From an uncultured bacterium (GTDB lineage Bacteria; Desulfobacterota; Deferrimicrobia; Deferrimicrobiales; Deferrimicrobiaceae), in assembly GCA_963741515.1 (NCBI GenBank), contig CAVUIA010000004.1, positions 67 through 64,066 of the forward strand: a DNA stretch of 64,000 nt, given 5' to 3'. Made by a program: the position numbers and the translations under genes. The notes under the pieces were generated by a model, which made no database searches, was not told the DNA's origin, and saw nothing but the letters and a program-made list of their open reading frames with translations. Of the stretch, positions 25,788 to 32,541 are shown piece by piece. Position 1 is the stretch's first letter; every line of letters starts with the position of its first letter.

Positions 25788-26684
25788 TTACTCGGAAAGA
25801 CCCTCACCTATCGCCTCGAAGCCGGCGATCACGTCGAACAGTTCCGCGTCGATGTCGCTCTGGCGCAACCGGTGAAACGTCCCGTTGAGGTCTTCCAGCA
25901 GTTCGTCGATGTTCTTGTCGGCGCGTTGCATCGCCGCCAGGCGGCTTGCGTTCTCGCTGGCGAGCGATTCGGCGCACGCCCGGAACATCGAGACGAAGAG
26001 GTACTCGCGGATGAGCGCCCGCAATGTCTCAAGGTCGCTGCCCATGACCTCGGGCAGTCTCTTCGTCGGCCAGGGAAGCCCGGCCCGCTCACGCAGCCAG
26101 GTGTCGTCCAGCGGCAGCAGCCGCTGATCGACTGTTTCATAACCCGCGGCGGAGACGGGGCGGTTATAGAAGAGATGAAGCTCCAAGACATCCCCCCGGG
26201 TCCGGCGCGAATCGTTTTCCACAAGGATCCTGCCGACGAGCGGGGTGACGGCCTTGACGGAATTCGGCACCGTGAAGAGACCGGCCAGCGGCAATCCGGC
26301 GTCTTTCAGGCGAGCGTGGACGCGCTCCCCCACCGCCCAGACCCGGAGTATCCCGGGCTGACCGGAGAGAGCCTTGACCGCCTCATCCGCCACCGCGTCG
26401 TTGAACCGCCCCACCAATCCCTGGTCGGAACCGAACACGACCGCGTTGACCGCGCCGGCCGCCCCCCGGCTTGCGTTTCCCGTCGACAGGGCATCCGAAC
26501 CGGCGCCGCGGAAACAGACCCCCAACCCGAGTTCCACGGCGCGATAGTAGTCTCCCAAAGCGCGCACCGATTGCTCGTATTGGCTGATGCTCGAGGCCGC
26601 CAGGGCCTTCATCGTGCGGACCACGGACTGGAGATCGCCGGCGCTGTCGATCTTGCGGCGCAGACTCGCGATATTGCTGCTCAT
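25788..26684 (-). CDS. atpG: N-ATPase (F-type) gamma subunit
   Basis: [31 protein letters not shown]... is a gamma-subunit signature. ATGA overlap with atpA. Confidence 0.85.
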
Positions 26685-28227
26685 GGCTTGCCGTCCTCCG
26701 GGGGCAGGAGCGCTTCGAGCGCCTGGCGTGCGATTCCCACGATCGCCTCGCGGTCCTCGTCGCTCAACGTGTCGGCCGATTCCAATCGTTCCCTTACCTC
26801 GCCGGAAATCTTCCCTGCCGCCTGGCGGACGGCCCCCTCGGCCTCCTTCATGCGGTCCAGCGGAATCCCGTCGAATAGCCCGGCGGTCAGCGCCAGCAGC
26901 ACGGCGATCTGCGCCGGCATGGGTACCGGGGAGGATTCCGACTGGATGAGGCAGGCGCGGATGCGCCGACCGTGCTCTATGATGCGCTGGGCTTCCTCGT
27001 CCATGCGGGCGCCGAACCGGGAAAAGGTCTCGCGCTCCTCGAATTGCGCATAGCCGAGCTTCAGGTCTCCCGCCGCCGCCCTGTACGGTGCGCGCTGCGC
27101 CTTCCCGCCGACCCTCGATACGGATTTCCCGACATCGACCGCGGGCAGCACACCCAATCCGAACAGCGACGGCGAGAGGAAGACCTGCCCGTCGGTGATG
27201 GAAATCAGGTTGGTGGGGATGTAGGCGGATATGTTCTGGGCCTCGGTTTCGACGATGGGCAGCGCCGTGAGCGAGCCGCCGCCGAGTTCCTTGCGCAGAT
27301 GCGTAGCGCGCTCCAGCAGCCGCGAGTGGATATAGAAGATGTCGCCGGGGAATGCTTCCCGGCCGGGCGGACGGCGCAGCAGCAGGGAAAGCTCCCGGTA
27401 GGCGCGGGCGTGGTGGGTAAGATCGTCGTAAACGATCAGTACGTCGCGCCCCCGCTCCATGAAATGCTCCGCGACGCTGGTGGCGGCGTACGGGGCGATG
27501 TAGGCGAGACCCGGCGGGTCGTTGCCCTCGGTCACGACGACCACGGTGTGGCCCATCGCGTCTTTTTCCCGCAAGGTCGCAACGACCTTCGCCAGGGCGG
27601 ACGACCGCTGACCGATGGCGCAATAGACGCACAGGACATCCTGGCCGCGCTGATTGAGGATGGTGTCGATAGCGATGGCGGTCTTGCCCGTTTGCCGGTC
27701 GCCGAGGATCAGCTCCCGCTGGCCGCGCCCGATCGGAATCAGCGCGTCGATGACTTTCAGCCCGGTCTGGAGCGGCACGGTGACGGGGGCGCGGTCCATG
27801 ATGTGCGGGGCGGGCCGTTCGATGGGCAGGCGCCCGTCCGCGGCGACCGGTCCATGGTCGTCGAGCGGCCGCCCGAGCGGATCGATGACGCGTCCCAGCA
27901 GGCCATCGCCCACGGGCACGTCCATTACCCTGCCCGTGCGCTCGACTTCATCGCCCGCGTTCAGGCGCCAGTATCCACCCAGCAGCACGACCCCGATTTC
28001 GTCCTCGTCCACGTTGAAGGCGATGCCGAACACATCTCCGGGGAATTTCAGCAATTCGTCGGAGCCCACGCCGGGAAGGCCGGAGACGCGGGCGATCCCG
28101 GTGGAAACACTCGTCACCGTTCCCGCCTCGCGCGGCGTTATCCGCGGCATGACCGCTTCGCGCCCCCGGCGAATGCCTTCGAACGCGCGGTCGAACGCCC
28201 CTCGCAGGATTTCGGGCGGCTGCGTCA
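26681..28227 (-). CDS. atpA: N-ATPase (F-type) alpha subunit
   Basis: Walker A GDRQTGKT. Alpha-subunit-specific regions. Confidence 0.9.
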
Positions 28228-29025
28228 TTTGGCCTGTCCGGATGACGCCGGATCGTTCCCGGGTTGCGGTTGTGCCTTTATCAGGTCCCCCACGCTTTTT
28301 TCCAGGGACGCAAGGTAACCCGCGATGCTCCAGGCGACTTTCCGCCCGTTCGCGGACAGTTCGATCCCGCCGATCACCTCCGGCGTCGTCTCGAACCGGG
28401 CGCGGATCCCCTCCGGGAAGATTTGGCCGATCGCCTGTTGGATCGCCTCCTGCTGCTTCGCCGGCAGGCCGAAGGCGCTGCGCACGATCACCGGCTCCTC
28501 CGCCGCGCGAAACCCCTCGACGAGATCCTTCTTCGCCGCTTCGTCCAGTTCCCGCAGGCGGCGCACGAACACATCGCACATGCTCTCTTCCAGGCCCGCC
28601 CCGGCGAGATCGTTCAGCGTCTTTCGCGCGATGGCGAAAACCTCCTCGCGGGTCCTGCGTGCGATTTCCTCTTCCAGGCCCTGTTGCTCGCGCAGCAATG
28701 CTTCCTGCCGCCTGGCCCGTAGGGCATTCGCGTCCTTCCGCGCCTCCTCGACGAGGCGCTCCCTTACGGCCCGGGCCTCGTCCCTCGCCTTGTCTAACAG
28801 GTCCTCGCGCTGCCGGTCGAACTCCCTGCTCTTTTCCCGGAACGCGTCGCGCTCTTTTCCCGCTTCGGCTTTCCTCGAGTCGGCGTCCGCCAGCTCTCCG
28901 GCGATCTTCTTTTCCCGCGCGTCCAGGGCATCGAGGACGCGCTTGTAGAGAAAACGCTTCAACAGCCACACCAGGACGATGAAATTGAGCGCCTGGGCAC
29001 CGACGGTGAACCAGTCGATGAGCAT
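28225..29025 (-). CDS. atpF: N-ATPase subunit b with a delta-like C-terminal domain (b-delta fusion)
   Basis: N-terminal TM and coiled coil [30 protein letters not shown]... The C-terminus ...[30 protein letters not shown] resembles the delta C-terminal domain. No separate atpH gene is present. Confidence 0.75.
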
Positions 29026-30679: not shown

Positions 30680-31061
30680 GGTGGAATTCCACCAGGCGGC
30701 GGATGAGCCCGCTTTCCATTTTCGCCAGCACCGAGCTTACGGCCTGCTCCTTTTCGTCCAGGAGCACGAATTCCCGCTCCACCGCCTCGCGCAATTCGCC
30801 AAGGTCGTTACCCGCGATGGCGTCGCGCACGGAGACGAGCACGTCCGGGCCGGTCTTGATCAGCACCCCTTCGTCCACGGCGACGTAAACCTCGCCCTCG
30901 CCCTCGACTTCGTAGATCAGGATCCCCGGCACCAGCGCGGCGACGCAATCGAGTCGCCGCGGCAATATCCCGAACGCACCCTGCCGGGTTTCCGCAACGA
31001 TGCGGGTCACTCCGCTCTTCTCCGCGAAAAGGCGGAACGGCAGTAGGATCTTAAGCTTCAT
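30672..31061 (-). CDS. atpC: N-ATPase epsilon subunit
   Basis: 129 aa. Beta-sandwich plus helical-hairpin pattern. Located directly downstream of the beta-subunit gene. Confidence 0.75.
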
Positions 31062-32541
31062 GCGCGCCGTCGTCCCGTTCGCCCCCGGGTCGGGACGCCC
31101 CTTTTCCGCCGGGTTTGCCGGATTCCGCTTTCTCCTTCGCCTCGTCCACCTTCCCGATCATATAGAGCGCGCTTTCCGGGTAGTCCTTGAATTCATCCCG
31201 CAGGATCCGTTCACACCCGTCCAGCGCGTCTTCCAGGCTGACGAGCCTGCCCTTGTGACCGGTAAACTGCTCGGTCGTGAAAAACGGCTGGGTCAAAAAC
31301 CGCTCCAACCTGCGGGCGCGGGCGACCACGTTGCGATCCTCCGGCGACAGCTGCTCCATGCCGAGCATGGCGATGATGTCCTTGAGCTCCGCGTATTGGG
31401 AGAGGGTCTGCCGGATTTTCTGCTGGAGGAGGTAATGGCGTTCGCCGACGATGCCGGGCGTGGCCATCTTGGAACCGGATTGGAGCGGGTCGATGGCCGG
31501 ATAAAGCCCCTCACTCGCCCGTTTGCGCGAGAGCACGATCGACGCGGAAAGATGCGAGAACGTATGCACCGCCGCCGGGTCGGTGAAGTCGTCCGCCGGA
31601 ACATACACGGCCTGGATGGACGTGATGGCCCCCGTGTCGGTGTTGGCGATGCGCTCCTCAAGCCGCGACAGCTCCGTGCCCATCGTGGGCTGATACCCGA
31701 GGCGCGACGGCATCTGCCCCATCAGGCCGGACACCTCGGATCCCGCCTGGATGAAACGGAAGATGTTGTCGATGAGCAGAAGGACGTCGCGCCGTTCGTC
31801 GTCCCGGAAATACTCGGCCATCGTCAGGGCGGCATGGCCCACGCGAAACCGGCTGCCGGGCGGCTCGTTCATCTGGCCGAACACCATCACCATGTTCGGC
31901 AGCACGCCCGCCTCCTTCATCTCGCGGTAAAGCTCCTCGCCTTCGCGGCTTCGTTCGCCGATGCCGCAAAACAGGCTGACCCCCTCGTGGCGGCCGATCA
32001 TGTTGTGGATCATCTCGGTGAGAAGCACGGTCTTGCCGACGCCCGCCCCGCCGAACAGGCCCGCCTTGCCCCCGCGCTCCAGCGGCAGGAGCACATCGAT
32101 CACCTTGATGCCCGTCTCGAAGACCTCGGATTTGGTGGAGCGCCGGCCCAGCGGAGGCGGCGCGCGGTGGATGCTGCGCCATTCCACGTCCGAAACTTCC
32201 CCCTCGCGATCGATCGCGCTGCCGAAAACGTCGAACATCCGCGAGAGGATTCCCTTTCCGACCGGCACCTTCAACGGCCCGCCCGTATCGTCCACCGCCA
32301 TGCCGCGCGCCAGCCCCTGGGTGGGGGTCAACGCGATGCCGCGCACCCGCTGCGCATCCAGTTGCGCGAGCACTTCGATGGCGATGCACCCGTCCTTCCC
32401 CGCGCGCAGCAACGAATAGATCGCCGGCAAATGGCTCTCGAACCGGATATCCACGACACTGCCGCGCACGGAAACCACGCTCCCCCGGTTGCCCTGGACC
32501 GGTAGATCGCCCCCTCTTGATTCCGCGTTTTCGATCGGCAT
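31051..32541 (-). CDS. atpD: N-ATPase beta subunit; first gene of the operon
   Basis: Walker A GGAGVGKT and DELSEED-like region. Beta-first gene order atpD-C-Q-R-B-E-F-A-G. Confidence 0.9.

Follow-up and report, generated by a model that had tools for sequence, protein, structure and literature searches.

We analysed a 64,000-nucleotide (nt) stretch of DNA from an uncultured bacterium of the Desulfobacterota (family Deferrimicrobiaceae; contig CAVUIA010000004.1 of assembly GCA_963741515.1), referred to below as the window. Its minus strand contains, from 25788 to 32541, nine intact colinear open reading frames (ORFs), which the ORF map and a per-gene family assignment give as atpD-C-Q-R-B-E-F-A-G, the operon of an N-type rotary ATPase (N-ATPase); a gene for an MscS-family channel (mscS) follows it. 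The alpha start was set at 28228 and the gamma start at 26684. From upstream to downstream, the nine genes are:

31051..32541, minus strand: atpD, N-ATPase beta subunit, 496 amino acids (aa); TIGR03305 889 bits (cut-off 752), generic atpD model 628 bits
30672..31061, minus strand: atpC, epsilon subunit, 129 aa; TIGR03166 163.6 bits (cut-off 100.1), PF02823 match
30335..30679, minus strand: atpQ, small membrane protein, 114 aa; TIGR02230 138.8 bits (cut-off 46.7), PF09527 ATPase_gene1, E = 2.7e-16
30028..30354, minus strand: atpR, hallmark N-ATPase membrane protein, 108 aa; TIGR03165 107.1 bits (cut-off 55.5), PF12966, E = 6.8e-30
29343..30038, minus strand: atpB, a subunit, 231 aa, GTG start; TIGR03306 373.4 bits (cut-off 302.1)
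29030..29311, minus strand: atpE, c subunit, 93 aa; TIGR03322 163.2 bits (cut-off 130.85)
28225..29025, minus strand: atpF, long b subunit, 266 aa; TIGR03321 full-length, 324.7 bits (cut-off 224.7), PF00430 at residues 10-137
26681..28228, minus strand: atpA, alpha subunit, 515 aa; TIGR03324 899.3 bits (cut-off 750.5)
25788..26684, minus strand: atpG, gamma subunit, 298 aa; TIGR03323 404.2 bits (cut-off 282.35), generic gamma model 108 bits

The genes are tightly packed: no gap exceeds 31 nt, and most junctions are start/stop overlaps or very short gaps. Specifically, atpD/atpC overlap by 11 nt, atpC/atpQ by 8 nt, atpQ/atpR by 20 nt and atpR/atpB by 11 nt, gaps of 31 nt and 4 nt separate atpB from atpE and atpE from atpF, and ATGA overlaps join atpF/atpA and atpA/atpG. 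The P-loop GGAGVGKT is present in the beta translation, and the stator arginine motif AVRLFGN in that of the a subunit. Arg53 and Arg83 of AtpR lie within hydrophobic segments, as read from the translation; in the AtpR family, Arg is conserved in two of three transmembrane segments (PMC2881411).

All nine products score above the curated cut-offs of the 'alternate F1F0 ATPase' NCBIfam models, while the generic F-type models score lower; these family-model scores were used as a proxy for a tree in grouping the operon with N-ATPases or canonical F-type enzymes. The N-ATPase family, first sighted in Methanosarcina barkeri, is marked by the order atpDCQRBEFAG, by AtpR as its tell-tale protein, by AtpQ replacing AtpI, by the absence of atpH and by an extra-long b subunit (Dibrova, Galperin, Mulkidjanian 2010, PMC2881411). 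The window operon shares with it the gene order, AtpR and AtpQ, the lack of atpH and atpI, the delta-like C-terminus of b and a glutamate in helix 1 of the c subunit. Other than that, it has ESV in place of ESTxxY in c, and its gamma subunit carries a foreign 7-residue tail. Because nine family-specific models are passed, the AtpR and AtpQ Pfam families are present and the gene order is the one defined in PMC2881411, we assign the region with high confidence to an intact N-ATPase, with a predicted N1 part of alpha3 beta3 gamma epsilon, an No part of a, c-ring and b, and AtpQ and AtpR in addition. This confidence is a joint one for the whole of our best explanation, namely the N-ATPase identity, the ion site and the deletion reading of mscS described below.

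The order from beta through epsilon, AtpQ, AtpR, a, c, b and alpha to gamma had been recognised in the original prediction, made from the DNA letters alone, and is borne out by the nine ORFs and nine family scores. The hidden Markov models for AtpR and AtpQ that it proposed as a check both score above cut-off (107.1 and 138.8 bits). It also held that a separate delta gene is missing; the ORF map leaves no room inside the operon for atpH or atpI, and neither is seen in its canonical position. No other ATP synthase genes were found within the 64-kb window. For comparison we used 160 other N-ATPase loci, 80 from species-representative genomes and 80 from metagenomes, each collection scan having given at least about 600 matches. 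The nearest homologues of the window subunits are N-ATPase loci from many phyla; the gamma subunit is 66-80% identical to those of the 160 loci. The base composition (G+C) of the operon is the same as that of the rest of the window. The operon is thus a further copy of the N-ATPase described in 2010, here in an uncultured deltaproteobacterial example.

Residues 177-244 of the b subunit match Pfam OSCP (PF00213) at model positions 103-171 of 172. The b-delta fusion proposed originally is therefore real as far as the delta-like C-terminus goes, but it is partial, as the b subunit carries only the C-terminal third of delta. Nor is it new: throughout the N-ATPase family, as already published, b is long and its C-terminus can be aligned with the C-terminal region of delta (PMC2881411).

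To examine its ion site, the c subunit was aligned with 59 counterparts from related loci, with that of I. tartaricus and with c subunits in the PDB. The I. tartaricus reference sequence is identical over 89 residues to PDB 1yce_A. The ligand positions correspond as follows:

I. tartaricus Q32 (GVGQGY): window Glu30 (ALGEGR)
I. tartaricus V63 (backbone): window Met61
I. tartaricus E65: window Glu63
I. tartaricus S66: window Ser64
I. tartaricus T67: window Val65
I. tartaricus Y70: window Tyr68

The original prediction had seen a full Na+ signature here, with the Q of LAQQPD as one ligand. In the alignment with I. tartaricus, which it had itself suggested, Glu63, Ser64 and Tyr68 do take the places of E65, S66 and Y70, whereas the Gln position holds Glu30 and the Thr is gone. 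LAQQPD is instead a cytoplasmic loop motif, with RQP as its counterpart in I. tartaricus and RQPD in Burkholderia, and provides no ion ligand. The helix-2 motif reads E63-S64-V65-x-x-Y68 and lacks the Thr of ESTxxY. Under the published criteria for Na+ ligands, five positions of the window c subunit hold a suitable residue; position 67 calls for a polar one (Thr, Ser, Gln or Arg), as found in all predicted Na+ translocators (PMC2359735), and is occupied by Val65. As judged from the alignment, the window ion site is of the two-carboxylate type with an incomplete ligand set.

Both features recur in the family. Nearly all N-ATPases have a two-carboxylate site with a helix-1 Glu (PMC2881411), and this Glu is present in 85 of 86 related c subunits (window included); the c subunit of one locus, L080, has a helix-1 Gln in its place. 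The Thr67 equivalent is Thr in 65 of the 86 and Ile, Val, Leu or Met in the other 21, the window again included. Among the c subunits with one of these hydrophobic residues, several belong to lineages of soil or peat (Bradyrhizobium, Methylocystis, Acidobacteriota, Bryobacterales). The helix-1 packing motif of the window is CxGxAxG, not GxGxGxG, which suggests, by analogy with AxGxAxAxG of Burkholderia, a c-ring larger than c11.

The closest biochemical counterpart is the N-type c17 ring of B. pseudomallei (Schulz et al. 2017, PMC5376962), the only N-ATPase ring assayed biochemically. Its site (E30, E61-T62-M63, Y66) resembles that of the window in being two-carboxylate with Glu30, in having a hydrophobic residue at the Thr67 position (Met63 there, Val65 in the window) and a Tyr one turn on, and in the non-Gly residues of the helix-1 packing motif. 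The two differ in that Thr62 there is Ser64 here, and AxGxAxAxG there is CxGxAxG here. Na+ binding was predicted for the B. pseudomallei ring, and H+ selectivity was found (PMC5376962). It had been argued that the helix-1 Glu perhaps compensates for an absent Thr (PMC2881411); for B. pseudomallei, this compensation failed. Both the H+ selectivity and the c17 stoichiometry are measurements on Burkholderia only.

The c11 ring of F. nucleatum (PDB 3ZK1; PMC3692424) provides a further reference. In that ring, the Na+ ligands are Glu32, Val63:O, Glu65 and Ser66 together with a water that Thr67 and Ala64:O keep in place, while Glu32 stays protonated (PMC3692424). Equivalents of Glu32, Glu65, Ser66 and Tyr70 are all present in the window; the Thr67 that holds the Na+-bound water is Val, and the F. 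nucleatum enzyme belongs to the canonical F-type ATP synthases and not to the N-type pumps. Within the same operon family as the window, the N-ATPase of Aphanothece halophytica (Soontharapirakkul et al. 2011) is, as cited in PMC5376962, the only one reported to be Na+ dependent, and is linked there to salt tolerance.

With its incomplete ligand set, in which Val stands in place of Thr, the enzyme may be coupled to Na+ or to H+. We lean slightly towards coupling by H+ or by a mixture of H+ and Na+, which we take as somewhat the more probable; a dedicated Na+ export would be somewhat the less probable.

The working of the enzyme can be proposed from what is established for its family. ATP would be hydrolysed in the alpha/beta head, which would drive gamma, epsilon and the c-ring round against subunit a and so expel cations from the cell. 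The long b subunit with its C-terminal delta part would replace a separate delta in the peripheral stalk, while AtpR, with two membrane-embedded Arg, may assist the assembly or the regulation of the two-Glu c-ring. The ion site would consist of Glu30, which is probably constitutively protonated, Glu63, Ser64 and Tyr68, with Val65 in place of the water-anchoring Thr. ATP-driven cation export is the direction expected from the family. N-ATPases are always found beside a genuine ATP synthase (canonical F- or A-type), and M. acetivorans does not need its N-ATPase to make ATP (PMC2881411).

Three features lie at and beyond the 3' end of atpG:

25741..25811, minus strand: relic of a radical-SAM 3' end, supplying the last 7 atpG codons with their stop (IGEGLSE) and the 47-nt spacer
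24634..25740, minus strand: MscS-family channel gene, 368 aa; PF00924 at residues 100-162, E = 1.4e-15, 57.5 bits (cut-off 20.2)
24133..24609, minus strand: gene separated from mscS by 24 nt; its 158-aa product has a hydrophobic segment at the N-terminus and a coiled coil

The mscS start lies 47 nt past the atpG stop and is preceded by a ribosome-binding site, GGAAAGGAAGG. The predicted channel has three N-terminal hydrophobic segments followed by an MscS beta-domain, in the same way as the E. coli MscS family (PF00924). It differs from E. coli MscS in lacking a detected MS_channel_3rd domain, in its long charged coiled-coil C-terminus and in scoring far below the cut-offs of the NCBIfam MscS equivalogs (NF047602, 41.9 bits against 400; NF007662, 32.7 bits against 321). 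The 47-nt spacer contains no terminator-like site and no unusually stable fold (z-score -0.76 versus shuffled sequences), so read-through from the ATPase operon into mscS is plausible. The 158-aa gene, whose product has no Pfam family at cut-off, may likewise be read through.

To this extent the extension of the operon by mscS, as first proposed, holds: the two genes are 47 nt apart, with no terminator between them. The linkage, however, is probably accidental. The closest relative, GCA_014860295.1, is about 95% identical, with gamma 94% and MscS 96% identical to those of the window, and it has the two genes on separate contigs (JACZKA010000634 and JACZKA010000266). Its contig L091 contains atpA, atpG, a gene for a 491-aa MS_channel_1st_1 protein 128 nt after atpG, and DUF481; its contig L086 contains ABC_tran, a radical-SAM gene and mscS. 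In blastn, the window matches L091 (95.8%) only down to 25812 and matches L086 (95.4%) from 25828 onward. A three-way alignment places the homology switch within the last atpG codons, at a shared GAGGC, with the junction at about 25811-25817. The radical-SAM protein of the relative ends in LEAIGEDLTEYRGIWYYF and its stop. Among 22 aligned family sequences, the corresponding point of gamma reads GFEAL in 20, GFEGL in one and GFEAI in the window only; the L091 gamma also reads GFEAL. Judged by eye across some 60 nt, the relic shares roughly 80% identity with the relative, compared with about 95% in the flanks; it is decayed and has gained a new in-frame stop.

Because the homology of the window switches between two contigs of the relative inside the last atpG codons, the simplest reading is that a recent deletion in the lineage of the window put mscS next to atpG by accident. 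Such a deletion would have brought together the 3' ends of atpG and of the radical-SAM gene preceding mscS, with loss of the intervening DNA, including the other MS-channel-like gene, and would have left the foreign 7-residue gamma tail and mscS 47 nt downstream without a terminator. The 491-aa protein of the relative (L091 1664-3139) carries the MS_channel_1st_1 (PF05552) repeat four times and shows no detectable MscS beta-domain; neither the window nor any of the other 160 loci contains a homologue of it. An insertion of the operon between usp and mscS, suggested by the arrangement Usp-Usp-MscS in L083, was considered and dropped, as the radical-SAM relic marks the junction as a deletion.

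The comparison loci agree with this reading. No orthologue of the window MscS lies beside the operon in any of the 160 other N-ATPase loci, as searched by tblastn, phmmer and jackhmmer (four other MscS-like queries were also run); the sole tblastn hit is a distant MscS-family ORF in L152, on the opposite strand about 1.9 kb from atpG. Orthologues of the window MscS are widespread (55-73% identical), and six orthologue contexts (65-96% identical) represent six unrelated neighbourhoods with no ATPase genes; orthologues 65-73% identical adjoin MscL, Usp, Na+/H+ exchanger, tannase or ABC-transporter genes. A conserved mscS linkage was therefore rejected, since no orthologue occurs at the 160 loci and just three unrelated family members adjoin an operon. 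On these comparisons, mscS is not an evolved member of the N-ATPase operon.

One alternative is that the junction is an assembly chimera of a metagenome contig. The window apparently derives from a metagenome-assembled genome (MAG), 100% identical proteins occur on one contig only, of 128 kb, and the close relative has the two halves on separate contigs. The two halves, however, share only about 5 nt at the junction (GAGGC), much too little to have misled an assembler, and the relic has diverged and acquired an in-frame stop, which is what a real locus would show. Moreover, an identical MscS is found in two independent assemblies from other sequencing runs (ERR12035938 and ERR15459710), and in one of them the upstream ORF ends exactly 47 nt before MscS, where the radical-SAM arrangement would give 22 nt. 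The 158-aa gene also adjoins the identical MscS in both assemblies and is absent from all other loci. An assembly artefact at the junction is thus unlikely, and we give the chimera hardly any credence.

A second alternative is that N-ATPases and MscS-type channels have a real, recurrent affinity, an extrusion pump with an osmotic release valve, and that selection placed mscS by atpG. MscS-family genes that are not orthologous to the window's do lie directly beside the operon in three of the 160 other loci: in L048 (4284-5264), a peat Verrucomicrobiota MAG, the MscS-family ATG overlaps the atpG stop (ATGA); in L029 (11456-12853), the gene is about 560 nt downstream of the operon; and in L018 (2301-4037), a BON-MscS gene is just upstream of atpD, with a Na+/H+ exchanger after atpG. 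The MS_channel_1st_1 protein next to atpG in the close relative fits the same idea. A Na_H_Exchanger (CPA) gene directly follows atpG on the same strand in four gammaproteobacterial MAGs (L007 11309-12064, L011 8341-9675, L016 2217-3548, L018 11185-12552); the L007 ORF is short and may be truncated. Passenger genes are found inside other operons, on the operon strand, between atpF/atpA or atpA/atpG (L022 5260-7488; L017 8541-10004; L008 9346-9981; L043 9287-9976; further, L024 4910-7728; L038 8767-9597; L042 7558-8499; L064 3045-4361). They encode an apparently split P-type cation ATPase, VIT1 (in two Verrucomicrobia), a pyridine-nucleotide-disulphide oxidoreductase with PPK2, baeRF, HlyD-like and DUF2254 proteins, and a CLC gene is also found inside or beside these N-ATPase operons. 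Just downstream of atpG, PPK2 occurs in four loci, PfkB in four and DUF2254 in three. On the other hand, the MscS count is only three of 160 loci, and it is zero among the 54 metagenome loci whose flanks are long enough. A single event may account for all four exchanger loci, each of them in a gammaproteobacterial MAG. What lies downstream of atpG otherwise varies widely, the 96 ORFs there representing 92 Pfam families. The window junction itself, with its relic well below the identity of its flanks, resembles an unselected deletion scar. We therefore consider such an affinity unlikely to explain the window. The other loci look like a loose thematic clustering with ion-homeostasis genes, in small counts, with lineages uncollapsed and no background computed. 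A bolder form of the idea would make N-ATPase operons hubs that repeatedly and independently capture MscS, CPA, P-type ATPase, VIT1, CLC and PPK2 genes, the deletion here producing a ten- or eleven-gene transcription unit of pump and osmotic valve, and the Thr-to-hydrophobic switch possibly marking repeated shifts from Na+ to H+; this we also regard as doubtful.

The combined reading put forward originally goes further: a dedicated Na+-exporting N-ATPase with a full ligand set, mscS as a functional tenth gene, and a possible Na+ cycle with a Na+-driven flagellar-type MotAB stator. Four of the five Na+-coordinating groups are indeed present (Glu30, the backbone carbonyl, Glu63 and Ser64), plus Tyr68, and the compensation argument, the terminator-free spacer and the presence of two MotAB sets all speak for it. 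These sets, which the original prediction had placed elsewhere in the window, were located by Pfam as adjacent pairs at 47710-50887:

50138-50887, minus strand: MotA of pair 1
49446-50141, minus strand: MotB of pair 1
48595-49449, minus strand: MotA of pair 2
47710-48594, minus strand: MotB of pair 2, sharing a single unbroken reading frame with its MotA

At 46072-47227, an ExbB/ExbD-like pair was noted by eye only. No feature marks either stator as Na+ driven. An E-value scan with Rfam of 23500-34500 gave tmRNA only, that is, no Na+ or Li+ riboswitch or other Rfam element upstream of atpD. Taken with the Gln that belongs to a loop motif, the Val at a position that is polar in all predicted Na+ enzymes, the H+ selectivity of the B. 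pseudomallei ring and the recent mscS adjacency unique to the lineage of the window, these results make the combined reading, as a whole, quite improbable.

Several points weigh against our own explanation, in which an N-ATPase with an incomplete Na+ site acquired mscS as a neighbour by deletion. The direction (pump, not synthase) and the coupling ion are both taken from the family only, and the rule that an N-ATPase is always a second copy concerns the whole genome, of which the window covers 64 kb. With Ser64, Glu30, Glu63 and the backbone ligand intact, the site may still bind Na+ despite having Val in place of Thr, above all where external Na+ is high. Both contigs of the relative are short, so that deletion is the simplest reading and a more complex rearrangement is possible. 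Finally, given the MscS-family genes at L018, L029 and L048 and the MS-channel-like gene in the relative, some functional affinity may exist.

Beyond the operon, three genes lie on its upstream side:

32735..33208, minus strand: universal stress protein gene, PF00582 Usp, E = 5.6e-23; 193 nt upstream of atpD
33667-34017, minus strand: tmRNA gene (tag ANDYPLAQAA)
34189-34683: smpB

The last 25 nt of the tmRNA gene have an inverted near-copy at 33586-33610 (2 mismatches), and together they form a hairpin of about 90 nt around a T-run terminator. A 17-nt direct copy of the tmRNA 3' end is found at 33405-33421, 270 nt downstream, and the N-ATPase operon begins about 0.9 kb beyond it. The direct copy may be an att-like relic of an element once integrated at ssrA. 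A genomic island at ssrA carrying the operon was considered and is not supported, as the 17-nt copy does not bracket the operon and the G+C of the operon is that of the window. On the downstream side, G+C falls to 0.557 at 24001-25000, with a GC skew of -0.246 and an AT skew of -0.255; the low point falls on the MscS coiled-coil tail, which is rich in Glu, Lys and Arg, and on the gene for the 158-aa coiled-coil protein.

The value added by the window is small, namely one more uncultured deltaproteobacterial member of a family described in 2010. Its lessons concern how such loci are read. A Na+ signature taken from the QQPD loop is a trap, as the real ligand positions give an incomplete set. 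Because the set is incomplete and about one quarter of the related N-ATPases share the Thr-to-hydrophobic change, the default annotation of N-ATPases as Na+ pumps is unsafe, in line with the Burkholderia result. The atpG-mscS junction illustrates that two closely spaced genes with no terminator between them can be the scar of a deletion and not a designed operon. The scattered ion-transport passengers at other N-ATPase loci, in turn, are a cheap and testable lead on the use of these poorly understood pumps.

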